From Malacoraja senta (taxonomy: Eukaryota), in assembly GCA_038087875.1 (NCBI GenBank), contig CM075991.1:8062001-8126000 (forward strand): 64,000 nucleotides of DNA. Reading direction: 5' to 3'. The notes below the pieces were generated by a model, which ran no database searches, had not been told where the DNA came from, and was given only the letters and a program-made list of their open reading frames with translations. A program made the translations under genes and the position numbers. This document shows, piece by piece, positions 11,716 to 60,682 of this stretch (position 1 is the first letter of the stretch; the number at the start of each line of letters is the position of its first letter).

Positions 11716-12539
11716 TGCGCACTCTGTGCCCACCCTGCCTGATCTCTTTACATAACGGAAGTCCTCCAGTCCCGATAACATCCTGGTGAATTTCCTCTGC
11801 ACTCTGGTTAATGCCTCGAACAATGCTGCCTGGTGCTGGAAGCTGAAAGAATTCCCACATTTAAGAGGCATTTAGATAGACACCTAAATATGCAAGGCTT
11901 AGTATAGATTAGAGATACAGCGCGGAAACAGGCCCTTCGGCCCACCAAGTCCGTACCGACCAGCGATCCCTGCACAATAACACTACCCTACACGCACTAG
12001 GGACAATTTACACTTATACCGAGCCAATTAACCTACAAGCCTGTACGTCTTTGGAGTGTGGGAGGAGACCAAAGATCTTAGAGAAAACCCACAAGGTCAC
12101 GGGGGAGAACGTACAAACTCCGTACAGACAGCACCCGTGGTCGGGATCGAACCCGGGTCTACGGCGGTGTAAGCGCTGTATGGCAGCAACTCTACCGCTG
12201 AGCCACCATGCCGCCCAAACCCTAACCCTAACCCTTTTGTGGACGGGGTGATTGCTGGTCAGCACAGACTCGGTGGGCTGAGGGGCCTGTTTCCACGCTG
12301 TATCTCTACAATCTACAAGCAATGTCACAAGTGTGCGCGAAGGAACTGCAGGTGCTGGTTTATACCGAAGCTGGACTCGAAAAGCTGGAGCAACTCAGCG
12401 GGTCAGGCGGCATCTCTGGACAAAAGGAATGGGTGACGTTTCAGGTTTGGAACCCTTCTAAAGTCTAAACTGTCGGACTGAGGGAGATTGAATCTGCATT
12501 GCCACTGTTGTCTTGCTGATCCCGCAATCAGATTACAGT

Positions 12540-12666
12540 CTGAAGAAGGGTTTCGGCCCGAAACGTTGCCTATTTCCTTCGCTCCATAGATGCTGCTGCA
12601 CCCGCTGAGTTTCTCCAGCTTTTTTGTGTACCTTCGATTTTCCAGCATCTGCAGTTCCTTCTTTAA
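12540..12666 (+). mobile_element. Short Penelope-derived insertion beginning at a hammerhead-like core, with a 15-bp TSD
   Basis: CAATCAGATTACAGT at 12525-12539 and 12667-12681; the insert starts CTGAAGAAGGGTTTCGGCCCGAAACGTT. Confidence 0.85.
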
Positions 12667-13720
12667 CAATCAGATTACAGTTCCTGGTCTGCTGAGTGAG
12701 AAAGGAGAAAAGAATAATGTTGGGAGAAGGGAGGTGTGGGGGAAAGGTAATGGTTGCATGTTAATTGACATCAATTTTGCCTCTAAGGTGGAAGTTATGA
12801 CTACTTACAGCTGATGTATCACTTTTACTTACAGATCTCTTTATTCTTACGATGCAACGGCAAGAACTTTCTGCCAGGCTTTAACTCTCTGTTGAGAAAG
12901 TTGTCACCTCATTACTTGCAGTGAAGCTTAAAGTCCAATTCACCATTTCTAGCCAATCTCAATGGGCAGTCTAAAGAAGGGTCTCCACCCGAAACGTCAC
13001 CCATTCCTTCTCTCCAGAGATGCTGCCTGTCCCGCTGAGTTCCCCCAACATTTTGTGTCTCTCTTCAGTGGCCAGACCTTTTGGTTTATCCATTCGGTTC
13101 AGAACTAAAGGAACTGCCATACATACGCTGGTTTACAAAAGAGGACACAAGGTGTTCATACTCAGCGGGTCAGGCAACATCTCTGGAGAATGTGGACGTT
13201 TTAAGTCGGGACCCATTTGGTTCATCCTGCCTGGCTCTGCTGCTTGAAAGAATTCCCCCTCTGTGTGTTGAATTCTCCAATTTTAGGCAATAGTTTCTGC
13301 TTTCATTTCATATCCGAGCAATTTTTATAAAATGTATCACTTTCAGGAGAGAAATTTTGGAAGCACGTTCACTCTCAGAGTGTGTGAGAAATTTGGAACT
13401 CGCATCTGCAAGTGGCAAGCCAACTCTTAACTTCACATCTGAGATTGCTAGATTTTGAATGCGGGGAGATCGGGCAAAGGTGGGTCTGTGGACTTTGATC
13501 AATTTATCAGCCATGATGCAGTTGAATGATGACACAGGCTCGAAGGGCTGAATCATCTCCGCAGATCCCACCCCACGCCAGATGGACGCATTGATCTGAA
13601 AGATCACTCAGTCCGCAGGCAATGCCACGGTGGGACTGAAAGCTGGAATGAAAGTCAAGTCAAACTGAGTTTGTGAGTTAACTGATCAATTGGTTTCTCC
13701 TCCTCCATCCACCCCCACAG

Positions 13721-13824
13721 ATCTGAGAAAAAACTTTGAACAAGATCCGCAGGCAAAGGAGGTTCCTCTTGAAGGGAAGATAATCCTGCATTGTCGTCCG
13801 CCTGAGGGAGTTCCCTCAGCCAAG
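13721..13824 (+). CDS. UNC5D: UNC5D-like exon, start of Ig domain 2 ([35 protein letters not shown])
   Basis: CCCACAG acceptor and GTAAGA donor; 104 nt, phase 1/0, in frame with the previous exon. Carries the UNC5 signature LRKNFEQ.P...CRPPEGVP. Not in the ORF track. Confidence 0.93.
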
Positions 13825-15345
13825 GTAAGAAGCAGCTATTGATCAGAATCAGAATCAGAATCAGATTTTACTTCGGAGTCACGTAATCACCAACGTAACT
13901 CCTCATAAAATAAAGATCAAACTTCAAACTGGTAAGTTCTCGTTTAATCTTACTATTTTATTCGCCAAGTATGTTTTGCAACATACGAGGAATTTTAACT
14001 GGCCTTGATTCATCACCTTGAAGCATCATTTCAAAGATTCAATGCCGTTATTATTGCTCTTGGTATCACCATGTTTGGAACATCGCTTTGATAAGTTTAG
14101 TTCAGAGATATGGCACGGAAGCAGGCCCTTCGGCCCACCGAGTCCGGGCCGACCAGCGATCGCCCCATACACTAACACTACCTGCACACACTAGGGGACA
14201 TTTTATTTTATTTTTTATAACAAGCCAATGAACCTACAGACCTGTACATCTTCGGAGCGTGGGAGGAAACCGAAGATCTCGGAGAAAACCCACGCAGGTC
14301 ACAGGGAGAATGTACAAACTCCATACAGACAGCACCCGTAGTCGGGATCGAACCCGGGTCTCCGCCGCTGCATTTGCTGTAAGGCAGCAACTCTACCGCT
14401 GTGCCACCGTGACTGCCCTCTGACTGAAGTAGTAGCCAGGATGTGGGATACAAGTTATATTAGGAGATACGAACGGAATGTAAGAAAGGAAATACTTCCG
14501 TGGTCGGTACAGACAAGCACCCGTGGTCAGGATTGAACCCGGGACTCTGGAGCTGTAAGGCAGCAACTCTACCGCTGCGCTATCGTGCCACCCCTATGCA
14601 CTCCCATGTTGAAATGATTCAGACAGATCGACTGCACTTGATATTTCCTATGACTTAGAGAGAGGACAAGCTAGCCCACTGAGTCTATGCTGATTCACAG
14701 AGTATTCCCTTTCCCCTACTAGTTATAGAGTCATACAGCGTGGATACAGGCCCTTCGGCCCAACTTGCCCACATCGCCCAACATGCCCCATCTACACTGT
14801 TCCCACTTGCCTGCATTTGGCCCAGATCCCTCTAAACCTGTCCTTTCCATGTACCTTTCGAATTGCTTATTAAACATTATGACAGTACCTGCCTCAGCTA
14901 CCTCCCCCAGCAGCTCGTTCCATTCACCCGCCACCCTCGATGTCCCTGTAACCTATTCACCCCACATTCCCATCAGCCTCCCCAAATCTACCACTCACCC
15001 ACACGCGAGGGACGGATTGTAGTGGCCAATTAACCTACCAATTTCCAAATCTCAGGGATGTGGGAGGAAACCTTGGTTTGGTTTGGAGATACAATGTGGA
15101 AACAAGCCCTTCGGCCCACCGAGGCCAAGTTGACCATTATTCCACTAGTTCTATGTTATCCCACTTTATCATCCTACACACCAGGGAAAATTTACAGACG
15201 GCAATTAACCTACAAACCTGCACGTATTTGGGATGTGGGAGGAAACTGAGAGTATAATTATTTACATAATTTCAGCATTTTGGTGCAGATAGGTAATTTA
15301 GAATTACATTTTTACAATGGGTGCACATCTCAACTGATAGAATAA

Positions 15346-15671
15346 TGGCCCTGTCCCACGGTACGAGTTCATTCCAAGAGCTCTCCCGAGTTTGCCCTGA
15401 TTCGAACTCGGAGATTTACGGTAACGGCCGCTTGTCGGTACTCGGGGCTCTCGTGGACATTTTTCAAAATGTTGAAAAATCTTCACGAGTCTTCCCGACC
15501 TTACCTGCCATTAGCGAGTCTTCCCGAGTACCTGCCGTTAGCGTTACGAGCCGCTAAGAGACATCCCCGAGCTCCGACGTACCCTCTATGTTCATTCTCC
15601 GTGCTTACCACGAGTTTTTTTTTAAACTCGGGAGAGCTCTTGGAATGAACTCGTACCGTGGGACAGGGCCA
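15346..15671. mobile_element. PIF/Harbinger-type MITE, type C
   Basis: ~40-bp inverted ends TGGCCCTGTCCCACGGTACGAGTTCATTCCAAGAGCTCTCCCGAG; TAA on both sides. Confidence 0.85.
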
Positions 15672-17589
15672 TAACTTTGAATATTCAATCTCCTGTGGAT
15701 TTAGTAATTGAGGCATAGAGCGTGGAAGCAGGCCCATCGGCCCAACTTGCCCATGCCGGCCAACATGTCCCATCTACACTAGTCCCATCTGCCTGCATTT
15801 GGCCATACCCCTCAAAACCTGTCCTGTCCTGTCCATCTAGCTGGCTCAATGTTTCTTAAACATTGCAACACTACCTGCGAATTTCTAAAGGGTTCTGAAA
15901 AATCCTAGACATCCAAACTATAGTTCGTTCAGCAAATGTTAAGGGATAGACTAACACCCAGAATATTAACTGACAAAAGCAATGATGTCTTGAACTCTTT
16001 GTTCAATGGCCACTTGGTACCTTGCCCAATCTTCAGTGATAAGTGAGACCCATTAATACAAATACTTTCTTGTCTTCCCTGTCATTGTTACAATGGCACA
16101 GTATTGGAATATCCTGCTCCCAGCGACAGGTTCCATTGGCCTTAATGCATCAATCAATATTACACTCTGAATGGGATTTGGGTGCCAGAGACCCGGGTTC
16201 GATCCCAACATCAGGTGCTGTCTCCTGTCTCTGTGGAGTTTGCACAATGCTATGTATCATGTTTACATATGTAGACACAAAATGCTGGAGTAACTCAGCG
16301 GGTGAGGCAAGCATCGCAGGAGAAAAGGAATGGTCTCGCCCCGAAACTTCACCCCATTCCTTCTCTCCAGAGATGCTGCCTGTCCCGCTGAGTTACTCCA
16401 GCTTTGTGCGTCTGTCGCTAAGTAACGCCCGTGGTCAGGATCGAACCCAGGTCACTGGAGCTGTGACGCAGCAGCTCGATTAGCTGCACCACCGCGCTGC
16501 CCCTCGTTCATATGAATTTTTCATTTTGATTTTCACAGGCACAGCTTGCTTATTTAAGTGAATTTATAGCACCTGGTAGAATCTGTAATTAGTGTGGCAT
16601 TGATATCCAGGTTTAGGTTTCGGGCACCAGCAGGAGTGAGCCTGCCACATTCTTTCCAAGATTATTTCATTTTCGAAATCAATAAAAAACCCTCTCTTGC
16701 CTGCACCTGCTGTGAATGGGATTGGATGAAAGAAAAATATATTTATATTCCTAAAGTGCCTGACCACATCTCTCAGGCTCTTCAAAGCACTTCATTTCAA
16801 GCCACTGCGACGGGCCTTATCAGCTCCGTCCCACGTGTAGCATGGAGGTGAATGAAGTGGGAATATCAGGGAGAACAAGCAATCTCCTGCAGCACAGAAC
16901 AGCATGGGGAACGGCCCTTGCCCCCACAGTGTTTGTGCCCAACATGATGCCAATTGAATCGGATCTCATCTGCCCGCAGACGAAAAATGCTGGAGAAACT
17001 CAGCGGGTGAGGCAGCATCTTTGGAGAGAAGGAATAGGCGACGTTGCCTGCGTACGATCTATCTGCCTCTATCCATTCCACTTCCATGTGCCTATCTAAA
17101 AGCCTCTTAAACACCACTATAATATCACACAAAGCAACAATAGACAATAGACAATAGGTGCAGGAGTAGGCCATTTGGTCCTTCGATGTGGTCATGGCTG
17201 ATCATCCCCAATCAGTGCCCCATTCCTGCCTTCTCCCCATATCCCCTGACTCCGTTATTTTTAAGAGCCCTATCTAGCTCTCTCTTGAAAGCATCCAGAG
17301 AACCGGCCTCCACCGCCCTCTGAGGCAGAGAATTCCACAACCTCCCTTCCTTTGATCGACACAAAAAGCTGGAGTAACTCAGCGGGTCAGACAGCATCTC
17401 TGGAGAAAAGGAATGGGTGACGTTTCGGGTCGAGACCCTTCTTCAGACAGAACTTCAGACGGAAGAAGGATCTCGACCCGAAAACGTCACTTATTTCTTT
17501 TCTCCACAGATGCTGCCTGACCCGTTGAGTTACTCTAGCTTTTTGTGTCTATCTGTGGGTTGAACCAGCATCTGCAGTTCCTTCCTACT

Positions 17590-18005
17590 CCCTTCCATTG
17601 ACTCCATTTATACCTCACGCTGCCTCGACAAGACCAGCAGCATAATCAAGGATGAGTCACACCCCTGGCCACTCCCTCTTCTCCCCTCTGGCATCGGGCA
17701 AAAGGTATAGAAGTGTGAAAACGCACACCTCCAGATTCCGGGACAGTTTCTTCCCAGCTGTCATCAGACAACTGAACCATCCTACCACAACCAGAGAGCA
17801 GTGCCGAACTACTATCTACCTCAAAGGGGACCCTCGGACTATCTTTGATTGGACTTTACTGGCTTTACCTTGCACTAAACGCTATTCCCTTATCATGTAT
17901 CTACACACTGTGAATGGTTTGATTGTAATCATGTATTGTCTTTCCGATGACTGGTTAGCAGGCAACAAAAGTTTTTCACTGTACCTCGGTACACGTGACG
18001 ATAAG
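17590..18005 (+). mobile_element. Rex1/Babar-like LINE 3' fragment
   Basis: HPGH-like HTPGHSLFSPLASGKRYRSVKTHTSRFRDSFFPAVIRQLN followed by a 3' UTR. Confidence 0.75.
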
Positions 18006-21278: not shown

Positions 21279-21784
21279 TATAATTATAGTTGGGCGGTCT
21301 GAGAGGTGTGATCAATGTTTGGCCAACTTCACTACACTCTGTGTGTGTGTGTTTAGGAGAACTGGTGTGTGTGATTTCAATCCGCGCTGCCGGGTTGCTG
21401 GAAACGCATCTCTCCCCAGGGATTAGCTTCTGTATCCTCCTTGGTGAAATTGCTTGATATGCTTATTAAGCAACTTTGTGTCGGCTCAGAGAGGAACTGA
21501 GAAATAACCGCACCATTAAAGAGAAAGAGACTGCAGTAAGGCGAGCAAAGCAGGTAGACAACAGCATTTAAAAAGTGTGATTAAACATAGTTCGAAGGTC
21601 TCCAATGAGGTAGATTGGAGGTCAGGACCGCACTCTTGTTGGTGAGAGGACGGTTCAGTTGCCTGATAGCAGCTGGGAAGAAACTGTCCTTGAATCTGGA
21701 GGTGTGCGTTTTCACACTTCTATTCTTGCCTGTTGGGGGAGGGGAGAAGAGGAAAGGGCCTGTCCCACTTGGCGGGTTTTTTCG

Positions 21785-21984
21785 NNNNNNNNNNNNNNNN
21801 NNNNNNNNNNNNNNNNNNNNNNNNNNNNNNNNNNNNNNNNNNNNNNNNNNNNNNNNNNNNNNNNNNNNNNNNNNNNNNNNNNNNNNNNNNNNNNNNNNNN
21901 NNNNNNNNNNNNNNNNNNNNNNNNNNNNNNNNNNNNNNNNNNNNNNNNNNNNNNNNNNNNNNNNNNNNNNNNNNNNNNNNNNNN
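21785..21984. other. Assembly gap (200 N)
   Basis: Run of N. The left flank is the start of a Harbinger-type MITE and the right flank is the interior of a Tx1-like LINE, so the two sides are not contiguous. Confidence 0.99.
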
Positions 21985-22375
21985 CCACCATCCTCATCTT
22001 TGGACACCCTGTGCCTAGGGTAGAGGGTAGGGGCTGAAGACGTCCTGGTTGGGCTGCTCCTGGGCCTGGCCAAGCTGGCCGTCCGCGAGTCACGGCGGAA
22101 GAGGGCTCTGCCCGAGCCGGCTGCCTGCCCCTTTCCCGGGGTTACGTCTGCACCCCGGTGGCACTAGAGAGGGACTACGTGCTGTCCACGGGCGCCCTGG
22201 GGGGGGGGGCGGGTATCTGGGACCGCGGGGGGGAGCGATGTATCCTTAATAAGGATGGGGAAATATTAGTTAAAGGAAAATACACATTGCTTGTATTGTG
22301 GTGGTGGGTTTAGTTTTGAATTATTTGGTGTTGTAAGTAGTATTGTAAATACGTGAATAGATCTATTTTTGGTTG
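21985..22375 (+). mobile_element. Tx1/L1-like LINE 3' fragment
   Basis: PTILIFGHPV.R.EGR followed by LLLGLAKLA; homologous to the reverse complement of 55780-56150. Confidence 0.7.
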
Positions 22376-23160: not shown

Positions 23161-23215
23161 CAATGGAGGCCATTAACTTCAGATTTGCTTCTAATCCCTT
23201 TGTCTTTCTGCGCAG

Positions 23216-23401: not shown

Positions 23402-23429
23402 GTTGGTGTGCTGCACAGTTTAATATTAA

Positions 23430-33289: not shown

Positions 33290-34476
33290 ATACATAGATA
33301 CATAGAAAATAGGTGCAGGAGTAGGCCATTCGGCCCTTCGAGCCTGCACCGCCATTCAATATGATCATGGCTGATCATCCAACTCAGTATCCCGTACCTG
33401 CCTTCTCTCCATACCCCCTGATCCCCTTAGCCACAAGGGCCACATCTAACTCCCTCTTAAATATAGCCAATGAACTGGCCTCAACTACCCTCTGTGGCAG
33501 AGAGTTCCAGAGATTCACCACTCTCTGTGTGAAAACGTTTTTCCTCATCTCGGTCTTAAAGGATTTCCCCCTTATCCTTAAGCTGTGACCCCTTGTCCTG
33601 GACTTCCCCAACATCGGGAACAATCTTCCTGCATCTAGCCTGTCCAACCCCATAAGAATTTTGTACGTTTCTATAAGATCCCCTCTCAATCTCCTAAATT
33701 CTAGCGAGTATAAGCCAAGTCTATCCAGTCTTTCTTCATATGAAAGTCCTGACATCCCAGGAATCAGTCTGGTGAACCTTCTCTGCACTCCCTCTATGGC
33801 TATAATGTCCTTCCTCAGATTTGGAGACCAAAACTGTACTCAATACTCCAAGTGTGGTCTCATCAAGACCCTGTACAACTGCAGTAGAACCTCCCTGCTC
33901 CTATACTCAAATCCTCTTGCTATGAAGGCCAACATACCATTCGCTTTCTTCACTGCCTGCTGCACCTGCATGCCTACTTTCAATGACTGGTGTACCATGA
34001 CACCCAGGTCTCGCTGCATCTCCCCTTTTCCTAATCGGCCACCATTTAGATAATAGTCTGCCTTCCCGTTTTTGCCACCAAAGTGGATAACCTCACATTT
34101 ATCCACATTATACTGCATCTGCCAAACATTTGCCCACTCACCCAGCCTATCCAAGTCACCTTGCAGTCTCCTAGCATCCTCCTCACAGCTAACACTGCCC
34201 CCCAGCTTAGTGTCATCCGCAAACTTGGAGATGTTGCTTTCAATTCCCTCATCCAGTTCATTAATATAAATTGTAAATAGCTGGGGTCCCAGCACTGAGC
34301 CTTGCGGTACCCCATTAGTCACTGCCTGCCATTGTGAAAAGGACCCGTTTACTCCTACTCTTTGCTTCCTGTTTGCCAGCCAGTTCTCTATCCACATCAA
34401 TACTGAACCCCCAATACCGTGTGATTTAAGTTTGTATCCTAATCTCTTATGTGGTACCTTGTCGAAAGCCTTCTGA
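33290..34476 (-). mobile_element. CR1-type LINE, ~1.2 kb 5'-truncated, containing most of the reverse transcriptase
   Basis: FQKAFDKVPH...GVPQGSVLGPQLFTIYIN...KFADDTKL...RPHLEY, then a single in-frame TGA at ~33840, then the ORF2 C-terminus and 3' UTR. Confidence 0.95.
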
Positions 34477-37400
34477 AACTCAGCGGGACAGGCGGCGTCC
34501 CTGGATAGAGATGCATTCCTTCTATCCACAGATGCTGCCTGGCCTGCTGAGTTACTCCAGCATTTTGTGTCTGTCTGCAGATGCTCCACTCAGTGCTTGC
34601 ATGCTGCACTGTACGATTGAACTCTGCGTAAATTCATCAGTTCGAACCCTCCTGCAATTTAAATTCAGGCTTGACTTTCAGAAAACACATAAAATGGGGA
34701 AACATAATTTATTGAATCTGCATGCAATTTCTGGAATAGATAAAAAGGCTAAAAATATATGCAGAAAGAGCTGTATATCACAGGAGATAATATTGTTATG
34801 CTCACGGACCTAGAACGAAGCTCTTAGGTCATATGTTTGATTTTTCCAGTGTTATGTTCATTAAGGTGAAGAATATTGGTGCTGGAGCAAGGAATAGTTT
34901 TAGTTTTTAGTTTTAGTTTAGAGACAGCAGCGTGGAAACAGGCCCTTCGGCCCATCGAGCCCACGCCATCCCTGCACACTAGTTCTATCCACGGACACAC
35001 CAGGGACAATTTGTAGAAGCCAATTAACCCACAAAGCTGCACGTCTTTGGAGTGTGGGAGGAGACCGGAGCACCCGGAGAAAACCCACGCGGTCACAGGG
35101 AGAACGTACAAACTGCGTACAGAGAGCACCTGCAGTCAGGATTGCTTCCGGGTCTCTGGTGCTATAAGGCAGCAACTCAAACGCTATCCCACCGTGCCGC
35201 CCTAGTCTTTATTTAAGGCACCCAGTCCCACTATTAAAACCTCCTCGGGTACAGAGTGTGAAACTGTCTTGACAGCACCATCAAACTCACATGAAGATAT
35301 AACGCAGGTTAGTTTGAGAGTGAAGCTCAATCAACAATGTCCCGCCAAATGTACTCAGGGAGTGTACAAGCCTAATAGTGCTCAGTGATAAACACTACAG
35401 ACACTACGACCACCCTCCTTGTACTACCAGGGACTTGTTCGAATTGGAGTAGACATTCCCTCGGTTCAACAACTACTGAATCTCCTTTCTCTTTAGACTT
35501 TAGAGATACAGCTTTTAAACAGGCCCTTCGGCCCAACGAGCCCATGCTGACCAGCGATCGCGCCGTACACTAGCATTAACCTACACTCTCGGGACAATTT
35601 ACAATTTTTGCCGAAGCCAATAACCTGCGCGATTCTGGAGTGCGGGAAGAAACTGGAGCACCCGGAGAAATCCCACACAGTCACGGGGAGAAGGTGCAAA
35701 CTCCCGTACAGACAGCACCCGTAGTCAGGTCTCCGACGTTGCAAAGCGACAACTCTACCGCTGCGCCACCGTGCCGCACCTGTTCTCTGATCGACTGTTC
35801 ATTAGCAATCTCCAGCCACATGCAGCACAATGATAGAACAAGTGGGGTAGTGGGTTTTCTCCGGGTGTCGTGAGGTAGACTGAGACTGACGGCCCAACCC
35901 CCCACCGCCCAACCACCCAATCCCAATCTTTGCGCATCCCCCAAGCCTTCCCACTCGTCACTTTAATTTCACTTTTCATGTATTTTGTGTTTTCAAGACT
36001 GTTGGCAGATCAATCTCCCTCCTGGAATAAACAAAGTTCTATCGTATCGTAAGATTATTGGCACCAGTGTCCTGGTGAATAAACCTTCTGAAGCTTCTGA
36101 ATTTTGTAGTCGGCAGGGCGGTACTCTGCAAACCGCCAACTTGGACAATTTAACATTTTATCAATCCAATTAACCTACAAACCTGCACGTCTTTGGTGTG
36201 TGGGAGGAAACCGAAGATCTCGGAGAAAACCCACGCAGATCACGGGGAGAACGTCCAAACTCTATACAGACAGCACCCATAGTCAGGATCGAACCCGGGT
36301 CTCTGGCGCTGCATTTTGCTGTAAGGCAGCAACTCTACCGCTGTGCCACCGTGACTGCCCAAATAAATAAATAAATACCGCTCAACCAACATCAGGTGGT
36401 GATTATGGAGCCAGTGGTGGAAACTGATTGTGCATTCATGGGCTTCCACGAACCATTCTTACAACAGTGTCTGCACTTCAGAAATGCTTCGTCGGTAGTA
36501 AAGAGCTTTGTGGCAACCTGAGGTTGTAAAAGATGCATAAAAAACAAAACGCTTTGTTCTGTAGACTTCTGTATGAAATGCGAGAAGCCATTTTGTACCC
36601 ACAAGCCTGTTGCTTTAGTGTAAAAACAAGGAACAGCAGATGCTGGTTTATACCGAAGATAGACACACAGTGCTGCAGTAACTCAGCGGGGCAGGCGGCA
36701 TCTCTGGAGAAAAGGAACAGATGACTTTGGATGGAGTCCCTTCTTCAAACCTGGAAGTGAAGAAGGGTCTCGACCCGAAACATCGTCTATTCCTTCTCTC
36801 CAGAGATGCTGCCTGCCCCGCTTTTTGTGTCTACTTACACAATAGGACACAGTTCTCCCCCCCCCCACCCCCCCATGAAGAGGGATCCTGTTCCAAAACA
36901 TCGCCTATCCATGTTCCATCTTCTCCAGTGATGCTGCCTGAGTTACTCCAGCTTTTTGTGTCCATTTTCCCATTGTCTGCTCTCTCTTCTGTGTCCAGCT
37001 CTCGAGATGTTACCAATGTATTCCTCTGCCATTTGTTAGCCCTTCAGAAAGTCTCTCTTTGCCCCGCAACGACACAACGGTTATCCATCCATAATTCTGG
37101 CCGTGATTGAGTAGTTTACCTGCTTGAATTATTTCCTCGGTTAGACGCTAAGACTGTTGTATGAAGACTGCTGTGCGGCCATCTGGTCCTCTGCCTGTCC
37201 ATGTCCCCAGTTCATGGGCTGCAAGTGAATTCATGCCGAGAGGCAGCGTTCTATTTCTCAACTGAAAACAGATGGGGTTTGCGATCATGAAATTTGAGCT
37301 TCAATGTCCCAAAATATTATTCTGTGTGTTAAAATGGCTTCTCTCTGGGAATGCTGTACTACCGTGACAGCCAATAATCAAATGCGGTTTAACTTTCGGA

Positions 37401-37975: not shown

Positions 37976-40900
37976 TACTGTGCTGCCCACTAAGTTGCAT
38001 TAAGATCGACAGTAGAGTCTAAGAATCATACAGCATGGAAACAGGCCCTTCACCCCTCTGGGTCCACGCCGACCCCTTGCTCAACCACTATCCTATACGC
38101 TCGGGATAGTTTACAATTTTACAGAAGTGAATTAACCTACGTCTTTGGAGTGTGGGAGGAAACCAGAGCACCCGGAGGAAACCCACGTGGTCCCGGTGAG
38201 AATGTACAAACTCCGTACAGACAAGTACCCGTAGTCAGGATCGAACCAGGGCCTCTGGCGCTGTGAGGCAGCAACTCTACCGCTGCACCACCGTGCCGCC
38301 CCTGTTCTCTGTTCGACTGTTTTTGATTTCGCAAAAATCTCCAGCAAAATGCAGTGCAATCATAGAGCGAGACTTTTGTCACCGAGATTTTTGTACGTTC
38401 TCCCCGTGACCGCGCGGGCTATTTCCGGATGCTCTAGTTTCCTCTCGCACTCCAAAGACGTACAGGTTTGCAGGTTAATTGGCTTCTGTAAAATTGTCCC
38501 TTGTGTGTAGAATAGTGCTAGTGTATGGGGTGATGGTTGGTCTGTACGGGCTCGATAGGCCGAAGGGCCTCTGTATCTCTAAATGTAAAACTAAATTCCA
38601 AAGACGTAGTTTGCAGGTTAATAGGCTTTGGTAAAATTGTAAATTACCCCTAGGGTGTAGAATAACTCTAGTGTACGGGGGTGATGGTCGGTCGGCACGG
38701 ACTCGGTGGGCCGAAGAGCCTGTTTCCGCGCTGTATCTCCAAAGTCTAAAGTCCAAAGAACTCGGCCTCCAGTCACAGATGTCCAGTGGTGTTCAGATGG
38801 CCAGGGTCCACAGGGGCTGCCGAGCTCTCTGCATCACGCTGCACTGGAATTGAATACAGTAGATGGCAAAGGGAATTAGTGAGCAGAGCACAGATGGAGA
38901 TTAGGTGACATTTCTAAATTACCTCGTTCAGACAAATGATAGCATGCAGGTATTGAAGGACTGCCCGAGGTTCAAGCATTGCAGTGCCAAATCCACACAG
39001 GCTGCCATTCACACTTCTGCTCTCATAATGCAGTTCAATTTAAAATAACAGCAGAGGGCCTTCAAGCTCAGCATGGTCGCAGAATAACCCATTATTTGGG
39101 GTTGTTTGGAGCAGTCAGCAGCTGTATTTGTCGAGCTGCGTGTCAGTTTATGATTTAGACTTTCGACTTTGTTTTAGACTTCAGCGATACAGTGAGGAGA
39201 CCAGCCCTTCGGCCCAGCGAGTGCACGCAGACCAGTGAGTCCGCGCCGACCAGCGGGTCCGCGTGGACCAGCGATTCTCCCACTTTACCACCACTCTAGG
39301 TGCAGGGGGCAAAATGTACAATGTTTTACACATCAGTTAACCTCAAACCTGTACGTCTCTGAAATGTGGGGGAAACTGGAACACCCGGAGGAAAAACCCA
39401 TGCAGGTTCACGGGGAGAACGTACAAACTCCATACAATAAACAACAGACAATAGGTGCAGGAGTAGGCCATTTGGCCCTTCGAGCCAGCACCGCCATTCG
39501 ATGTGATCATGGCTGATCATCCCCAATCAGTACCCCGTTCCTGCCTTCTCCCCATATCCCCTGACTCCGCTATTTTTAAGAGCCCTATCTAGCTCTCTCT
39601 TGAAAGCATCCAGAGAACCTGCCTCCTCCGCCCTCTGAGGCAGAGAATTCCACAGACTCACCACTCTCTGTGAGAAAAAGTGTTTCCTCGTCTCCGTTCT
39701 AAAAAAGTGTTTCCTCGTCTCCGTTCTAAACAGACTACAGACAGCACCCGTAGTGTGGATGGAACCTGGGTCTCTGGCGCTGTAAGGCAGTGACTCCACC
39801 GCTGTGCCACCATGGATTTATTTTTTGATGCCGGGGCTTAGTGAGATCAGTGGGGTTTGGTTCTTGGGTCAGGCAGCATGTACAGGCACTCCCTGACTTA
39901 TGTTAGGGGTAGGTTATGTCAATCCTTACGTAAGTCGGATTTTATTTAAGTCGGAATCACCATCCCCGTCCCCTGCCCGGAAAAACTCGCTGAGAATATT
40001 AACTGTCTCAGCGGCGTTCGGCTGCACCCCGGGCACTTTCTGTGGCCTCGCACGGCCTTGAAGCGCCAGAGACCCGGGTTCGATCCTTACTGCGTGTGCT
40101 GTCTGTACGGAGTTTGCACGTTCACCCTGTTGTACGTTTAAGCCAATATGCTTTGACAGTGGGAGTGTCTAGGACTAGAGGTCATAGCCTCAGAATTAAA
40201 GGAAGGAGATGAGGAGGAATCTCTTTAGTCAGAGGGTGGTGAATCTGTGGAATTCTTTGCCACAGAAGGCTGTAGAGGCCAAGTCAGTGGATATTTTTAA
40301 GGCAGAGATGGATAGATTCTTGATTAGTACGGATGTCAGGGGTTATGGGGAGAAGGAAGGAGAATGGGGTTAGGAGGGAGAGATAGATCAGCCATGATTG
40401 AATGGCGGAGTAGACTTGATGGGCTGAGTGGCCCTATTCTGCTACTATGACTTATGACCTTATGATATTGTTGATCAACCACCTGGGATAATAGCTAGGT
40501 ACACAAAAATGCTGGAGAAACTCAGCGGGTGCAGCAGCATCTATGGAGCGAAGGAAATAGGCAATGTTTCGGGCCGAAACCTTTCTTCAGACTGATAGGG
40601 GGTGGGGAGAAGAAAGGAAAAAAGGAAAAAGGCGGAGGAGGAGCCTGAGTGCTGGGGGGGGGGGGGGGGGAGGGGAGGAGACAACCAGAGGGCTGATGAA
40701 GGGGAGGGGACAGCAAGGGCTAGCAGAATTGGGAGAATTGGGGTAATAGCTATCTCCTCTCTACTCCAGCAGTCTGAAGAAGGATCCCAACTTGATGCCA
40801 TCTTCCTCCACCTACTCAGTTCCTTCAGCACCTTGTGCTCAAGATTTCATCATCTTCAGTCTCTTGTCTCTCCAGATTATTCTCACAAGTCTGTCCGCAC

Positions 40901-51211: not shown

Positions 51212-51396
51212 GTTCAAGGAGAAACTGCAGATGCTGGAGAATCGAAGGTAGACAAAATTGCTGGAGAAACTCAGCGGGTGCGCCAGCATCTATGGAGCGA
51301 AGGAAATAGGCAACGTTTCGGGCCGAAATGTTGCCTATTTCCTTCGCTCCATAGATGCTGCCGCACCCGCTGAGTTTCTCCAGCAATTTTGTCTAC
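51212..51396. mobile_element. Fold-back Penelope-derived insertion with a 16-bp TSD
   Basis: CTGTGATCGTAAACTT (51196-51211) / CTGTGATCGGAAACTT (51397-51412); inverted arms of ~73 bp. Confidence 0.85.
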
Positions 51397-52985: not shown

Positions 52986-53184
52986 AGGGCCTGACCCACT
53001 TGGGCGTCATTTGCGCATCACGCAGATGGCGAGCGAAGATTTTGTACGTCCCAAAATCCTGGGGCGCCGCGCGCGAGACCGCGTGTCACTGCCTAGGTCA
53101 CCACGTACCACGCACCTTGTGTTGTGACGCGTAAATGATGTCGCGTAAATGACGTGCAAATGACGCCCAAGTGGGACAGGCCCT
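52986..53184. mobile_element. PIF/Harbinger-type MITE, type E, inserted in a V-SINE
   Basis: GTTGCTGCC-TAA-[AGGGCCTG...CAGGCCCT]-TTA-CAGCGCCAGAG. Confidence 0.85.
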
Positions 53185-54262
53185 TTACAGCGCCAGAGAT
53201 CCGGGTTCCATCCTGACCACGGGTGCTGTCTGTATGGAGTTTGTACGCTCTCCCTGCCCGGAACCATGTGGGTTTTCTCCAGGAGCTCCGGTTTCCTCCC
53301 AACTCCAAAGACGTGCAGGTTTGGAGGTTAATTGGCTTCGGTAAAATTGTAAATTGGTCCTAGTGTGTGTAGGATAGTGCTGGTGTACGGGGTGATCGGA
53401 GCAGACTTGGTGGGCCGAGGGGCCTGTTTCCGCCCTGTATGTCTCAGGTCTGAATTTCCCGTTTGCAAGCAGTTGAAAAATAATGAAATAAGCTGAATTG
53501 ATTTAAACATCTTGCAAAGTAGTTGCCACACAAAGCCAACAGCAACGGTACATGATAGCTGCTGAATCAGATGGCGATGGCTTTATCAAGTGCCTCACTG
53601 TCCAAGGCAACGCTGGCTTCTAAAGATAGACGGTTCCTCTGGTCGGCCTCATTGGTGTCGCAGCTCCACGGGAAGTTAGCCGACCACAGGGGGACACGTT
53701 TTCCACCGCTGATTCAGAGCGGGCTCGTCCTATTTGCATTTGCAAGAACATCCCTCTGTCTTGCTGCGAACGATGACGTCCCCTGGGCAGCGGGCATGGC
53801 ATGATGTGTTCAGCTTTGTAGGCAGATGGTCGAGCTCGAGGCCAAACCCTTGAATTGAGACATCATCAGGAATAAGTGCTTCATTATATGTCCCGGGAGA
53901 ATTTAATCAATGCCTTTTTTGAAAGTTTAAAAAAACCACAGCAATGTTCCAGCAGCGTATTACACATGTACTGACACAAGTCAATTAAGACAAAATGGAT
54001 GTGTGAAAGTTAACTGTTGATGCAAATTTGTGTTAATTTTTAATCAGTGCAATTGAGTCTGAGGTGTTTATGCTTAATGGGATATTAGTACCACTAAACA
54101 AGCCTTCACAGAAATTCACAAAAAGCTGGAGTCACTCAGCGGGACAGGCATTATCTCTGGAGAGAAGGAATGGGTGATGTTTCGGATCGAGACCCTTCTT
54201 CGGACTGATCTGCCTGCAGTTTGCTGCACTTCACAGCACAGCTGCTCAACTTCAGAATGATT

Positions 54263-54597
54263 AAGAAAGAACTGCAGATGCTGGAAAAATTGAAGGTAGA
54301 CAAAAATGCTGGAGAAACTCAGCGGGTGAGGCAGCATCTATGGAGCGAAGGAATGGGCGACGTTTCGGGTTGAGACCCAAAAATGCTGGAGAAACTCAGC
54401 GGGTGAGGCAGCATCTATGGAGCGAAGGAATGGGCAACGTTTCGGGTCGAGACCCTAAAAAATGCTGGAGAAACTCAGCGGGTGAGGCAGCATCTATGGA
54501 GCGAAGGAATGGGTGACGTTTCGGGTCCGAAACGTCACCCATTCCTTCGCTCCATAGATGCTGCCACACCCGCTGAGTTTCTCCAGCATTTTTGTCT
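54263..54597. mobile_element. Penelope-derived insertion: three tandem ~77-bp units plus one inverted unit, with a 15-bp TSD
   Basis: AACTTCAGAATGATT at 54248-54262 and 54598-54612. Confidence 0.85.
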
Positions 54598-55010
54598 AAC
54601 TTCAGAATGATTGATCATATGAGGTACCTCTGGGAACCCTATTAAGATCGTCTATAAAACCTACCTATCTTTCATCTGTAGATTCCTGGCTTCTTGAACA
54701 TGCTTAGCTGTGAGATTTACTGGAGAAAGCCCGAGGGATTGGGTAGCAAGGATAAGGAAGTGGCACAGCATTTTTCTAACTATTTCCCTGCGCTGTGCAT
54801 CTATCCTTCTCTCCGCACACTCTCTGTGTGAGAACGTTTTAATAATTCTAAATTATCAATTGAGAAAGTAAAAGAAATATATAGACATTTATCACACAGT
54901 TGAGCCCTCTGAACAAGGTTAGTGCAATGAATTTGTTCGACAATTGGCTTTTATTTGGTGTGTTGGTTTATTGAAAACCGAGAGGCAAAATCAATGATTA
55001 TTGTAGACTG

Positions 55011-55229
55011 AAATGCTGGGGAAACTCAGCGGGTGAGGCAGCATCTATGGAGCGAAGGAAAACAAGAAGTTTCGGGTCGAGACCCTTCTTCAGACTCGAC
55101 TGGAAAGAAGGGTCTCGACCCGAAACGTTACCTTTTCCTTCGCTCCATAGATGCTGCCCCACCCGCTGAGTTTCCCCAGCATTTTTGTCTACCGTCGATT
55201 TTTCCAGCATCTGCAGTTCCTTCCTAAAC
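55011..55229. mobile_element. Fold-back Penelope-derived insertion with a 14-bp TSD and two divergently oriented hammerhead-like remnants
   Basis: ATTATTGTAGACTG at 54997-55010 and 55230-55243. Confidence 0.85.
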
Positions 55230-55398
55230 ATTATTGTAGACTGTGTATCTTTACAGACATCTTAGCGGTGGATCAATTGCTAACACTATTGCCTCTTTTT
55301 CTAGATCAAAAATATTTATTCAAATAGTATTTACAATACAATAAAACAAAACAAGCCACCACCATAATACAAGACAAACAAATATACTAAGTAAACTG

Positions 55399-55523
55399 TT
55401 AAAGAAGGAACTGCAGATGCTGGAAAATCAAAGGTACACAAAAATGCTGGAGAAACTCAGCGGGTGCAGCAGCATCTATCGAGCGAAGGAAACAGGCAAC
55501 GTTTCGGGCCGAAACCCTTCTTC
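55399..55523 (-). mobile_element. Short Penelope-derived insertion with a 15-bp TSD, inside a Tx1-like tail
   Basis: ATACTAAGTAAACTG at 55384-55398 and 55524-55538; 5'-truncated within the hammerhead core. Confidence 0.85.
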
Positions 55524-55754
55524 ATACTAAGTAAACTGCTAGACAACTATGTTGCAGGTCTTGTCCAGGATGCATTTAACCCCACTTGGTGCCCAGCGGT
55601 TTCATAAATCCCCCAGGGTGCCCGTGGACAGCTGGTAGTCTCTCTCTAGTACCACCTGGATGCGGACGTAACCCCAGTAAAGGGGCAGGCAGCCCTCTTC
55701 TGCCTGGCGCCGTGACTCGTGGATGGCCAGCTTGGCCAGGCCCACAATTGCCTC

Positions 55755-56385
55755 TTTTTTTTCAAAAAATGTATTCAATTATTAAAAAAATAATATTACA
55801 CTACAATAAAACAAGGCAGAACCCAGCACCATAATACAACACAAACAAATATCCTTAATACACTACTATACAGCTATGTTACACTCCTTGTCATGGATGC
55901 ATTCAACACCCTGCGGAGCCCAGCGGTCCCGGAACTCCCTCAGGGTGCCCATGGACAGGGCATATTCCCTTTCTAACCCCACCCCGGGAAAGGGGCAGGC
56001 AGCCGGCTCGGGTACAGCCCTCCACCGCTTGGTGCCGTGACCCGCAGATGGCCAGCTTGGCCAGGCCCAGGAGCAACCCAACCAGGACATCTTCAGCCCC
56101 TACCCTCTCCCCTACGCACAGGCTGTCCAAAGATGAGAATGGTGGGTGAAAAGAGCAGCCAGAAGGCAAGGAGCAGCCCCTTTAGGTATTGGAACAGGGG
56201 CTGCAGCCTCATGCACTCCATATACACGTGGTACACAGACTCGTCCAGCCCGCAAACGTGGCAGGCGGCTGGCGAGTCTGTGAACCGTGAGAGAAACAGG
56301 TTGCAGGGAACTCCACGGTGCAATACCCTCCACCCCAGGTCCCCAATGTAGAGGGGGGAGAATCCCTGCGTAGAACTATTGTCTC
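55755..56385 (-). mobile_element. Tx1/L1-like LINE ORF2 C-terminal zinc-finger fragment; a second partial copy lies at ~55300-55742
   Basis: DLGWRVLH...CHVCGLDESVYHVYMECMRL...FSPTILIFG, a CX2C-X7-H-X4-C knuckle. Confidence 0.78.
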
Positions 56386-57659
56386 TGTTGGAAGGCAGCG
56401 AAGTCAAGTACTGCTCCTAAGCAATGAAAGGGCGGCACAGTGTCACAGCCACTGCCTCACAGCACCAGAGACCCTGGTTCAATCCTTACTTTGGCTGCTG
56501 TCAGCCTCGCGTTCTTTCACACACCAAAGAATGCCAACACACAGTGGTAACATCCAAGGTCAGGATCAAACCTAGGTTTCGGTAGCTGTGAGGCAGCATC
56601 ACTAAATCGCCACACCATTGTGTTTTGGGCAAAGTTTATGCTTAAGACATCGCTAAGACATGTAAAATATAAGTGCTGGAGTAACCCAGTGCTGGAGTAA
56701 CCCAGTGGGTCAGGCAGCATCTCTGCACAAATAGGATGGGTGACATTTTTAGGGTCCGGACCCAGTTACTCCAGCACTTTGGGTTTATCTTTGGTATAAT
56801 CCAGGATCTGCAGTTCTATGTTTCTATTAAAAAATATAATATGGTTAATAACATATGGTTGTGTCGGGGAACTTGCTGTGTATTAATCGGTTGGATTATT
56901 CCCTGCATTACAGCAATAATTGTCATATAGTGTGGAAACAGGCCCTTCGGCCCAACTTGCCCATACCAACCAACCTGTCCCATCTACATTAAGTTCATAA
57001 GTTGTTGGGTTGCAGAATTAGGCCATTCCACCCATCAAGTCTACTCCGCCATTCAATCATGGCTAATCTATCTCTCCCTCTCAATCCCATTCTCCTGCCC
57101 TCTCCCCATAACCCCCAACGCCCGTACTAATCAAGAATCTATCAATCTCCATTGACTTGGCCTCCACAGCCTTCTGTGGCAAGACTCTCTCCAGACCCAC
57201 CTGCCTGTGTTTGGCCCATATCCCTCCAAACCTGTCCTATCCATGAATGTTTCGTAAACCTTGTGATAGTACCTGCAATGACCTTGAAGATTTTTGCACT
57301 AATCCTTGGGATGTTCTCCAGAAGGCAGAGGAGGCCAATTCACTGGATGTATTCAAGAGAGAGTTGGATATAGCTCTTAGGGCTAACGGAATCAAGGGAT
57401 ATGGGGAGAAAGCAGGAACGGGGTGCTGATTTAAGATGATCAGCCATGATCATGTTGAATGGCGGTGCTGGCTCGAAGGGCCGAATGGCCTACTCCTGCA
57501 CCTATTTTTATGTTTCTTTGTTCTGATTTTGAAAAGAGCTTCGGAAATTCAAAACCGGAGCATCAGTGACAGTCAAACATGATCCATTTATCAACGTGTC
57601 CACCATGCTCAGCCATCCCTCACAGAACAGCAATTTAACAGATAGCTCGCTCTTTATTG

Positions 57660-57840
57660 AACATAAAACATCCTTCGAAGTTTGCGACCAACCCTGACCT
57701 TCTCAACGGCTGAAGTAAAAAGTGCAGCGTTACTCGGGCCAGGTGTTTGTCCGCGTGTCCACGGGAGGGGGGGGGGGATTGAACTCACGACCTTCCAGCT
57801 CAGCGAGGGGAGTGCTACCCACAGAGCCACAGCTGACACC
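57660..57840 (-). mobile_element. Degenerate tRNA-derived SINE head, possibly DeuSINE (SacSINE1-like)
   Basis: The reverse strand reads GGTGTCAGCTGTGGCTCTGTGGGTAGCACTC...GAAGGTCGTGAGTTCAAT, with A- and B-box-like motifs. Confidence 0.45.
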
Positions 57841-58175
57841 ACTGCAGGGGCACGTAATGTCCTTGACATCATGCACAGTCGTTTTCTGCAGCACACCACA
57901 AACAACAGCGTGGGACCATTTGGTTAAGCTCACACTGCTGTTGTTCAGCTGCCCACAGCAGCAGAGCCAGAGTATTTAGTCGACGTCTATGACTGTCCGC
58001 AGTGATAATTGTTCCGAGCTCCATCAACCTTCAAGCTCACAGAAAACCTCATGATTTTTAAACCGCAGCTCTTAATGTCTGTGTACTGAAGTGAACTTTT
58101 CTAACACCTTCAGGGAGTCCAGTTATCACCATACGTACCGCGATTGGAAAGAATCGTTTGGTGGCTGGAACACAG

Positions 58176-58595
58176 TAGAGTCTTTATTCTTTGGAGCGCA
58201 GAAGGTTAAGGGGGGACTTGATAGAGGTCTTTAAAATTATGAGAGGGATAGACAGAGTTGACGTGGATAAGCTTTTTCCATCGAGAGTAGGGAAGATTCA
58301 AATAAGAGGACATGATTTGAGAATTAAGGGACAAAAGTTTCGGGGTAACAAGAGGGGGAACTTCTTTACTCAGAGAGTGGTAGCTGTGTGGAATGAGCTT
58401 CCAGTGGAAGTGGTGGAGGCAGGTTCGATTTTATCATTTAAAAATAAATTGGATAGGTATATGGACGGGAAAGGAATGGAGGGTTATGGTCTGAGTGCAG
58501 GTAGATGGGACTAGGTGAGAGTAAGTGTTCGGCACGGACTAGAAGGGCCGAGAGGGCCTGTTTCCGTGCTGTAATTGTTATATGGTTATATGGTT
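58176..58595 (+). mobile_element. CR1-type LINE 3' fragment, second subfamily with a (TATATGGT) tail
   Basis: ORF 58191-58514 ERRRLRGDLIEVFKIMRG...FFTQRVVAVWNELP; reverse copy near 29478-29690. Confidence 0.9.
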
Positions 58596-58689
58596 AATAG
58601 GACTTGATGTTTCAATCTCTGTAACAAGTTGGCACTCTTGCTATTTGCAGTGGGATTGGAGCGGTGAAAGGTCGGGTAGGTACGTCATC

Positions 58690-59020
58690 GGGGTCATCAG
58701 GTGGGCACCCTCCTTCTTTGATGTTTCATTGATAAGCCCACAACATCTCCAGAGGGCTCAACGGTGATACCTGGCGTCCCAGTTGCACCCCGCTCAATTC
58801 CATACCCTCCTGTCTTCATCTTGCAGCCCAATTGTTGTCTCTCCTTTTGATCCAAATCCAATTGCTGCTTTTTTTCCGCAGAATTTGATAATGGCTTGAT
58901 TGCTTGTTGGAGGGAGCGACCCCTCAGCCCCATTTTCTTTAATAGCCTGGTCATAGATGTAGCAACAAATCCCCTGCATCTCACTTCGACAGGGAAAATC
59001 TTGGTCTTCCAGCCATTCTG
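58690..59020 (-). mobile_element. HERO/R2-group non-LTR element 3' fragment (restriction-like endonuclease C-terminus)
   Basis: The reverse strand gives GWKTKIFPVEVRCRGFVATS..RLLKKMG, then after a frameshift WIWIKRR. Confidence 0.6.
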
Positions 59021-59337
59021 GGAAGCTTTGTAGTAATCCTATCCTTTCATGCACAATGCTAATCGCACCTCAACAACAGAACACTACTGTCAAGAGCCAA
59101 GAGACAAAGAATGTTTTATCGTCAATACGTCCCGAAACAGAACAATTAAATTCTTACTTGTAGCAGCACGACAGATATGTATACATAAGATAGACACAAA
59201 ATGCTGGAGTACCTCAGCAGGACAGGCAGCATCTCTGGAGAGATGCTGCCTATCCCATATATACACACACACACACACACACATAAAAACAAACAATAAA
59301 AGTACAAAAGGCAAAACTAATGTCCCCCAAGACTATG

Positions 59338-59531
59338 GTAGACAAAAATGCTGGAGAAACTCAGCGGGTGAGGCAGCATCTGTGGAGCGAAGGAAATAGG
59401 CCGAAACAAGGGACTTGGCCCGAATCGTTGCCTATTTCCTTAGCTCCATAGATGCTGCTGCACCCGCTGAGTTTCTCCAGCATTTCTGTCTACCTTCGAT
59501 TTTCCAGCATCTGCAGTTCCTTCTTAAACAT
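59338..59531. mobile_element. Fold-back Penelope-derived insertion with a 15-bp TSD
   Basis: TCCCCCAAGACTATG at 59323-59337 and 59532-59546. Confidence 0.85.
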
Positions 59532-59960
59532 TCCCCCAAGACTATGTAGTTCAGAGCTTATTTGGAGGTTGTAATGTAGAGGTTGCAGTTTAAAGGTTGT
59601 ACTGTAGGGAAGAAGCTGTTCCTGAACCAGGACGTTACAGTTTTCAGGCACCTGTACCTTGTTACCGATGGCAGAAGTGAAATGAGAGTGTGGCCAGGGT
59701 GGTGTGGGACTCTGATGATGCTGGCTGCCTCCTGGAGTCAGCGACGACTGTAGGTCTCCTTGATGGTGGGGAGGTCAGTACCCCATGATGAAATGGGCCT
59801 TGTTCACCATTTTATGTAGTCTTCTCAACTCCTGGGCATAATATTACACCTACACTGTTTGTATGCACGATCCCAGCTCTTCTAGATAACAGATTGACTT
59901 TAAGAAATTAATGCATTAGTTACTCAGTTCTCTCTCTCTCTCTCTCTCTTCTTTTTATAG

Positions 59961-60129
59961 CCTGCAACCAGAGGGAGGTGAGATACTCCTGAGTCCAGAG
60001 GTCACCTGTGGACCACCAGGTTTATCCTTGTCCACCCCAGTTGCTCTGACAGTCCCTCACTGTGCCATGGTGTGCCCGGAACACTGGAGCATTAAGCTTA
60101 AGAGGCAGGTCCTGACTGGAAAATGGGAG
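59961..60129 (+). CDS. UNC5D: UNC5D-like ZU5 exon ([56 protein letters not shown])
   Basis: (TC)n tract plus TAG acceptor and GAG|GTGAGT donor; 169 nt, phase 2/0. Contains the ZU5 motif [11 protein letters not shown]...PHCA...W. Confidence 0.94.
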
Positions 60130-60328
60130 GTGAGTTTGGTGATTTGCAGATTCCTTGCAACGGCCGTGTTGAAGTACGTCCCAGATAGAACAATGAAATC
60201 TTGCTTGCAGCAGCACTACACAATATGTAAAACATAGTGCACTGTGAACAATATAATAAATAAATAAGCAAAAAATGGTTCAGTGTGTGTATATATACAT
60301 ATACACATATATACACATGTATACAAAG

Positions 60329-60534
60329 TGTTTAAGAAGGAGCTGCAGATGCTGGAAAATCGAAGGTACACAAAAATGCTGGAGAAACTCAGCGGGTGCA
60401 GCAGCATCTATGGAGCGAAGGAAATAGGCAACGTTTCAGGTCTGAAGAAGGGTTTCGGCCCGAAACGTTGCCTATTTCCTTCGCTCCATAGATGCTGCTG
60501 CACCCGCTGAGTTTCTCCAGCATTTTTGTGTACC
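60329..60534. mobile_element. Fold-back Penelope-derived insertion with an intact hammerhead-like core (60442-60469) at the turn
   Basis: ~72-bp perfect inverted arms; TACACATGTATACA on both sides (60312-60325 and 60535-60548), although this lies in a microsatellite. Confidence 0.8.
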
Positions 60535-60682
60535 TACACATGTATACATATACACATATATGCACATACACATATATACACATACACATATATGCACATA
60601 CACATATATACACATACACATATATACATATACACATATATACATTTACACACATATATATACACATATACATATACATATA
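60535..60682. repeat. Degenerate (CA/TA)n microsatellite
   Basis: TACACATATA-type reiterations. Confidence 0.95.

Follow-up and report, generated by a model that had tools for sequence, protein, structure and literature searches.

The window analyzed here is a 64,000-nt stretch of the Malacoraja senta genome (assembly GCA_038087875.1, contig CM075991.1, positions 8,062,001 to 8,126,000), and it contains seven short units related to the hammerhead ribozyme. We found that all seven are real insertions of the 3′ end, or pseudo-long terminal repeat (pLTR), of a young Neptune-type Penelope-like element (PLE), of which they carry the last 95–130 bases. Our reading, to which we assign a probability of about 70%, is that these pLTR tips, with target site duplications (TSDs) of ~14 bp and two fixed ends, were likely made by nicking of both target strands and priming at two sites on the element RNA. 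Element positions (x) are counted from the first C of the hammerhead core motif (x = +1) in a reference that is a real tandem copy from locus L181; a copied segment, or arm, with its 3′ end at about +129 is of type A and one ending at about +93 is of type B, both being distances from the core. In standard hammerhead numbering, stem II spans +9 to +20 and cleavage is predicted after +28.

The best genomic matches of the unit at 12540 include 100%-identical ends of long copies, with 99–100% identity overall, and many matches run upstream into a pyrimidine-rich untranslated region (UTR) and the end of a GIY-YIG coding sequence. The same arrangement is found in the window at 8699–9420 (minus strand), a longer 5′-truncated copy ending at site B that holds the GIY-YIG coding end, the pyrimidine-rich 3′ UTR and the core. 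L181 itself (C1122:12001–22000) is a tandem array of at least 2.5 full-length 3.87-kb units, 99.2% alike and frameshifted, with a long proline-rich N-terminal region, a reverse transcriptase (RT), a Cys-rich linker and, at the C terminus, an endonuclease (EN) of the GIY-YIG type. Between L181:5664 and 8192 the RT and then the GIY-YIG domain lie in one frame (RVT_1, E 4e-6; GIY-YIG, E 9e-4; both under Pfam’s curated cut-offs). Features of endonuclease-containing (EN+) PLEs are present: RT with C-terminal GIY-YIG, tandem copies forming pLTRs, an optional 30–40 bp tail, an inverted 5′-truncated copy (69 of 154 young inserts are head-to-head) and a hammerhead motif in the pLTR. The Zn-finger-like linker between RT and EN, recognized by eye, points to the Neptune or Nematis clade, a Cys-rich linker being described as a feature of Neptune and also of Nematis (PMC8557442). 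The Penelope origin put forward in the initial annotation is supported by these matches to the ends of long RT and GIY-YIG copies; its description of the units as inserted on their own is corrected, since they are continuous with long 5′-truncated copies that share their ends, including 8699–9420 and an intermediate copy at 40497–40739 (minus strand; x −135 to +94, site B end, 14-bp TSD with one mismatch).

Genome-wide properties were obtained from a hand-chosen sample of 1.26 Mb, made up of the window and 120 10-kb tiles drawn from nine contigs, with 464 kb of the total belonging to the window’s contig; 90 loci retrieved with three core queries were added. The 1.26 Mb contain 531 arms in 434 clusters, which by rough extrapolation corresponds to some 6–8 × 10^5 arms genome-wide. 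More than 90% of young arms are the pLTR tip only, and the reference is covered by 7 young copies upstream of −30 but by about 95 at +80. Some head-to-head inserts are long, with ~1-kb arms (L200, L203/L204, L222/L223 and L182), and these likewise pair A with B.

All six insertions first reported in the window are present with their direct repeats, five of which are exact (15, 15, 14, 15 and 15 bp). Two of the six are single arms ending at A. The unit at 12540–12666 (plus strand, x +1 to +127) has a 15-bp TSD at 12525–12539 and 12667–12681, partly common with element sequence at both joints, and opens with a minimal type I hammerhead core motif (12540–12567, predicted cleavage after 12567), and the unit at 55399–55523 (minus strand, 15-bp TSD) is without the first core base. 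The unit at 51212–51396 is a head-to-head pair, without a full core, in which a minus-strand A arm (x12 to 129) and a plus-strand B arm (x11 to 94) meet through the 15-nt stem II quasi-palindrome, and its 16-bp TSD has one mismatch. At 54263–54597, also without a full core and with a 15-bp TSD, a minus-strand A arm with two tandem restarts (x9 to 124, 8 to 90 and 11 to 86) faces a plus-strand B arm. A minus-strand B arm (from x −2), an 8-nt filler and a plus-strand A arm (x4 to 129) make up the head-to-head unit at 55011–55229, which has a 14-bp TSD and a damaged core, and the head-to-head unit at 59338–59531, inserted in a host repeat with a 15-bp TSD, is made of a minus-strand B arm (x30 to 93) and a plus-strand A arm (x4 to 129). 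The seventh unit, considered only probable at the outset and placed from 60329, is real and is mapped here to 60326–60534, with a minus-strand A arm (from x18) head-to-head with a plus-strand B arm (x −1 to +94, intact core at 60442–60469) and an exact 14-bp repeat, though one that lies inside a CA/TA microsatellite; its junction type has 130 matches genome-wide, which are dispersed. The placing of the variable end at or near the hammerhead core is confirmed, and the description of the units as ribozyme-bearing holds for 12540 and 60329, the other five of the seven having no intact core. The window contains 61 matches to the unit, mostly old. Because contigs of two other organisms carry the same inner junctions of units 54263 and 55011 (window 54569–55050), these two units predate the split from those organisms.

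The initial annotation described one fixed end shared by the units, and two are found. The 3′ ends of arms lie at +93 to +96 (B) or +127 to +131 (A), and the 35 nt between them is the known tail. The outer arms of the 69 young head-to-head inserts are A+B in 60 cases, B+B in 5, A+A in 1 and unclear in 3, and A+B is found in 72 of 99 junctions when young and old are taken together (82 classifiable). Single-arm inserts carry TSDs in 31 of 77 cases (B-only 21/52, A-only 10/25), and the 21 B-only cases indicate that site B can prime alone. At priming joints without untemplated bases, at least one base is in common with the target in 60 of 79; about half of joints would be expected to match the target by chance, by our estimate. 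A miniature inverted-repeat transposable element (MITE, class II) was considered as a source and rejected, as the arms end at different sites, equal terminal inverted repeats are absent and single-arm copies have TSDs.

Once 11 duplicate loci had been removed, together with edge cases and insertions with identical flanks, 154 young insertions remained for the TSD analysis. A flanking repeat is found in 81 of the 154, compared with 2 of 600 mismatched flank pairs. Its length has a mode of 14 bp and falls within 13–16 bp in 59 of 81, 14–16 bp in 47 of 81 and 10–18 bp in 78 of 81, so that TSD length is peaked and not tight, as the initial annotation had it; instead of a fixed stagger, a preferred one of about 13–15 bp is found. 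For head-to-head inserts the mean is 14.4 ± 1.5 bp, or 12.7 ± 2.4 bp once element-matching bases are removed (45 pairs). Paralogous empty sites in host repeats were available for 22 of the 81 insertions, and 21 of these have a single copy of the repeat, the remaining one, a microsatellite, being ambiguous; window units 55399 and 59338 each have a single repeat copy at 3 of 3 such sites. Target-primed insertion is supported. A comparison of window 54000–55800 with contigs of four runs gave no orthologous empty site among the matches listed. In each of two pairs (L212 and L064; L080 and L258), independent inserts occupy almost identical positions in one host repeat, a hint of preferred target sites.

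The core motif is found 120 times in 1.26 Mb and not at all in one base-shuffled control. The variable pair of stem II, x12:x17, is kept as U-A in 73 copies and U-G in 34, and helix III is a 4-base palindrome; a minimal hammerhead motif has been described (PMC4209133). In cofolding, the hammerhead dimer was not the lowest-energy form. Separately, reference positions x +48 to +112 are predicted to form a hairpin whose 3′ strand lies within the tail, with site B in a bulge and site A just past the stem.

The 5′ ends were counted for 112 young arms in the tiles, old copies being excluded because alignment to the young reference is interrupted where they have diverged and because the upstream sequence of old subfamilies is different. 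Taken in order from the 3′ side, 17 arms end at +37 to +93, 5 of the remaining 95 at +28 to +36, 8 of 90 at +15 to +27, 29 of 82 at +4 to +14 and 46 of 53 at −7 to +3, leaving 7 of 53 that pass −8 and reach 22–1,053 nt upstream. The stop rate per nucleotide is 0.079 at −7 to +3, 0.032 at +4 to +14 and 0.006 at +28 to +36, the ends being piled at −5 to −1 and at +8 to +11. The match to the parent is 0.93 at −1, has dropped to 0.50 at −4 and is at background by −6 (44 arms), and the flanks upstream of −5 are unrelated. From these counts and this decay it follows that most cDNAs copy past the cleavage site and the whole core and then stop within ~5 nt. When plotted relative to the core, as the initial annotation had advised, the 5′ ends therefore form a sharp peak at the ribozyme and not a smooth truncation curve. 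Its proposal that RT aborts at the ribozyme structure is retained only for the ends at +4 to +14, many of which are junctions at the stem II palindrome, and fails for the main peak, which follows complete copying of the core.

These observations can be accommodated as follows. The element protein would nick both DNA strands, and each nicked strand would prime reverse transcription at one RNA site. Priming by one nick would give a single arm, and priming by both would give two like-strand cDNAs that could be joined via short self-complementary stretches of the ribozyme region. Priming would occur on the transcript’s 5′-terminal pLTR, the copy that is followed by the open reading frame (ORF), with run-off at the RNA end, TCAGT, just before the core; long copies would come from priming further down tandem transcripts. 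We put the part of this scheme in which most cDNAs are short through run-off from the RNA 5′ end at a little under even odds. Some arms hold ORF-side bases, up to +197 in L290. In vitro, a PLE of the anole is reported to cut and extend both strands, to start at two internal sites that bound the tail, to require ORF-side RNA downstream and to use uncleaved RNA as template (PMC11167929). An internal pLTR promoter is described in Drosophila virilis (PMC2377424) and an initiator-like (Inr-like) motif in a rotifer pLTR (PMC3846280).

Several observations weigh against this scheme. TSDs are undetectable in 73 of the 154 young inserts. Copying of a cap would leave an excess of G, and none is found (G 0.11 at −3), the ends spread over ~5 nt, and the second group at +8 to +11 recurs in tandem restarts and looks like pausing. 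Ribozyme stem I is only 2 bp, and there is no Rfam match at gathering score. Upstream of the core lies a tract, 97% of it pyrimidine, with CAG at its end, which resembles a 3′ splice site; an intron of D. virilis is described as ending at this place, at helix I, with the start site further upstream (PMC4209133, PMC2377424). Finally, 34 of 34 simple head-to-head pairs have arms that are alike at two subfamily sites, as folding back of a single cDNA would also predict, and pairs in which the B arm is the longer could also have arisen through a later inversion between the arms.

The splice-site-like tract and the D. virilis intron end make plausible an alternative in which the two-site priming is the same and a roadblock at the ribozyme’s 5′ edge, either a folded core or dimer or proteins bound to the pyrimidine tract and CAG, stops RT on long RNAs. 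This is a strong rival, if less likely than run-off. It would account for the second group of stops (29/82), the restarts at +8 to +11 in unit 54263 and the retention of the tract and CAG in young and older subfamilies. However, most arms copy the whole core before stopping, the sequence beyond it is predicted to be unstructured, and the edge is sharp, with base frequencies at background by −6. Spliced template forms were found in 0 of 157 upstream contexts.

We consider it unlikely that head-to-head units are made by one cDNA folding back, or by self-priming on an antisense template as has been proposed for the palindromes of rotifer Penelopes (PMC3846280), instead of by two primed strands. 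Palindromic junctions are indeed common, with 820 loci joined via the 15-nt stem II quasi-palindrome and nine of another type among 99 junctions, others being joined via a 9-nt self-complementary stretch at −4 to +5 and via further sequences, and the agreement of arms noted above fits folding back. On whether a pair has one RNA template or two, arms differ at 22 of 191 polymorphic cells within pairs as against 33% between pairs, a contrast that does not decide between them, the sites having been picked on the same data. However, the precise B end would need a separate reason, B-only inserts with TSDs exist, and some junction palindromes have loops of 0–1 nt. Moreover, among 52 simple pairs the B arm is longer in 17, the A arm in 9 and the two are equal in 26, and one A-primed cDNA folding back cannot give the B-longer pairs. 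With two-site priming, the second site explains what the initial annotation saw as fold-backs.

A discrete ~130-nt non-autonomous RNA, a ribozyme short interspersed nuclear element (SINE) or retrozyme transcribed from short copies and mobilized in trans, had been offered as one possible source of the units, and we regard it as improbable, slightly more so than folding back. The excess of short copies is huge (531 arms in 1.26 Mb), the 5′ edge carries an Inr-like TCAGT, composite centres do propagate, and retrozymes have been proposed as PLE derivatives (bioRxiv 10.64898/2026.07.22.740005). A SINE would have a sequence of its own; here no sequence separates short copies from long, a unit being wholly identical to long-copy ends. 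As to a single defined 5′ end, there is the peak at −5 to −1 together with the second group at +4 to +14 and a tail of long copies. Given the identity to long-copy ends, the varying 5′ ends and the lack of a full core in 5 of 7 window units, a separate SINE or retrozyme family is not supported. Composites with common centres also sit on at least four outer-arm backgrounds, and the anole enzyme is reported to need RNA downstream of its start sites (PMC11167929), which short copies lack.

Ribozyme cleavage sets few of the ends: templates consisting of cleaved RNAs, with 5′ ends marking the cleavage site, may account for L290 (four arms), L217 and L243, in which every arm starts at +30 to +34, and are refuted as the main route and very improbable as such, because the predicted site shows no peak, only 5 of 95 young arms ending at +28 to +36, a rate like that of neighbouring stretches, and 90 going past.

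Outside the window, a subset of inserts shows a further process. In the 464 kb around the window, five head-to-head inserts, the nearest ~3 kb upstream of the window, have in common one junction without microhomology and a tandem core repeat of 44 bp. Exact matches to the 44-bp junction number 55, of which 30 (20 loci) lie in 8.1–12.6 Mb of contig C15 (14.3 Mb), 4 on C14, C17 and C21, 21 on higher-numbered contigs and none on C1–C13. In the C15 lineage (L036, L046–L048, L070, L293–L310), 44-bp tandem hammerhead repeats bring together as many as six consecutive cores. For a sister variant, in which the repeat is 34 bp, there are 42 matches, 0 on C15 and 13 on C3. The central junction has 542 matches, and among the first 100 listed, from which its contig distribution was taken, C1, which makes up a fifth of the assembly, has 5, C2 has 17 and C3 has 69; those listed on C2 fall in two zones of 1–2 Mb and those on C3 in two end zones that make up 12% of C3. 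A control microhomology junction is dispersed, with 23 of 130 matches on C1 (p = 3e-13 against the clustered central junction). Copy density does not explain the clustering, since C1 0–17 Mb has 100 young-subfamily matches and none of the central junction listed. The x82 variant was tried as a local marker and ruled out, as it has 9,436 matches genome-wide.

Individual TSDs are present at most of the 35 loci examined, A and B lying on either side, and the common centre is found on at least four outer-arm backgrounds. In L313 (C3:88,026 kb) the A arm contains the B end, TSD and flank of L311 (C3:87,977 kb), 49 kb away, and the captured-flank 17-mer has exactly two occurrences in 1.94 Gb; this is a single such case, and a noisy search of 27 of 35 junction fillers gave no further clear one. 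Together, the clustered junction, the several backgrounds and the captured neighbour flank indicate that centres are sometimes copied from nearby inserts, and for this subset such copying is well supported. The gap between arms would be filled by copying a neighbouring genomic insert. The seven junctions of the window itself show no sign of local centre copying: no local relatives of four specific junctions of three units were found in ~2 Mb searched, and the other two types are common and dispersed.

There is an even chance that ectopic gene conversion, acting well after insertion through the repair of breaks at palindromes from nearby copies, spread the clustered centres. Arms disagree in 5 of 24 composites (6 before removal of one point mutation) compared with 0 of 34 simple pairs (p = 0.009), a mosaicism that conversion would produce; the clusters lie mostly near contig ends, and a donor flank might likewise be captured in break repair. 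On the other side, 7 of 24 composites have the youngest arm background and perfect TSDs, though exact-match searches favour young copies. We advance only tentatively the broader idea that Penelope insertion is two-ended with an open middle often closed from a neighbour, so that junctions and 34- and 44-bp hammerhead repeats spread locally, parasitizing new insertions, and are not transposed whole, a possible birth route of retrozyme-like arrays and record of nuclear proximity. Two other kinds of array were seen: L327, L328, L314 and L317 have 34-bp tandem repeats of the stem II region without the first core bases (about ten in L327), and L319, L325 and L326, on two contigs, have a young composite centre inside ~61-bp repeat arrays of an older subfamily.

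The window also contains fragments of a long interspersed nuclear element (LINE)-type RT element, which we take to be CR1-like, at 33384–34589, 10186–10665 and 7027–7572 (all minus strand; Pfam RVT_1 E 1e-20 for 33840–34589), and an assembly gap at ~21,780–21,990 (200 N in the window).

The insertion mechanism of PLEs is still described as unresolved (PMC8557442, PMC11167929), and the very large set of young products provides testable numbers: two start sites separated by 35 nt, each serving one target strand, a ~14-bp duplication and a stop that immediately precedes the ribozyme core instead of falling at the cut site. Local copying of centres could explain the origin of tandem hammerhead arrays. 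Fragments such as these are easily misfiled as SINEs or MITEs. Earlier work already describes pLTRs that are truncated, tails, inverted copies and minimal hammerheads, solo or opposed (PMC4209133, PMC8557442, PMC8969392, PMC6765202, PMC7229834). We found no report of the A+B pairing statistics, the stop peak upstream of the core or local centre copying in the literature searched, in which most subscription journals were not covered.

L1 twin priming likewise has both target strands priming on the RNA to give an inverted segment within one TSD, but its second site varies and its arms are free of overlap, whereas in the present element the two sites are fixed and each arm copies a stretch that the other copies too. 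As described in PMC8557442, Neptune-clade EN+ PLEs have the same RT and GIY-YIG, Cys-rich linker, tandem units, 30–40 bp tail, inverted 5′-truncated copy and minimal hammerhead in the pLTR; the element studied here differs in that >90% of its young arms are the pLTR tip only and in its several hundred thousand copies, a rough figure. Its TSDs peak at 14 bp, compared with 8–10 bp in rotifer examples (PMC3846280). PAc, a Poseidon element of the green anole and so of another clade, has the same two start sites bounding the tail, cutting and extension of both strands, uncleaved RNA and AT-rich targets, and the main text of that report does not treat A+B pairing, TSD length, a 5′-end peak or local copying (PMC11167929). 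The minimal hammerheads of metazoan PLEs share with the present motif an extra base ahead of stem II, a palindromic helix III and a short helix I, and are mostly single and from truncated PLEs, with some opposite-strand pairs 100–700 bp apart; ends, TSDs and mechanism are not mapped in the parts of that study consulted, and the cleavage and circles it proposes are not supported as the main route by the 5′ ends found here (PMC4209133). The non-LTR retrozymes of animals have the same origin in PLE pLTRs (PMC7229834; bioRxiv 10.64898/2026.07.22.740005), and the 2026 preprint derives tandem retrozymes from pLTRs, giving no mechanism in the part available. Such retrozymes are consecutive complete hammerhead units, an arrangement found in 0 of the 7 window units, whereas the 44-bp arrays, L048 among them, consist of tandem repeats that each contain a full core and are retrozyme-like in form, with array junctions that are not at the cleavage site.

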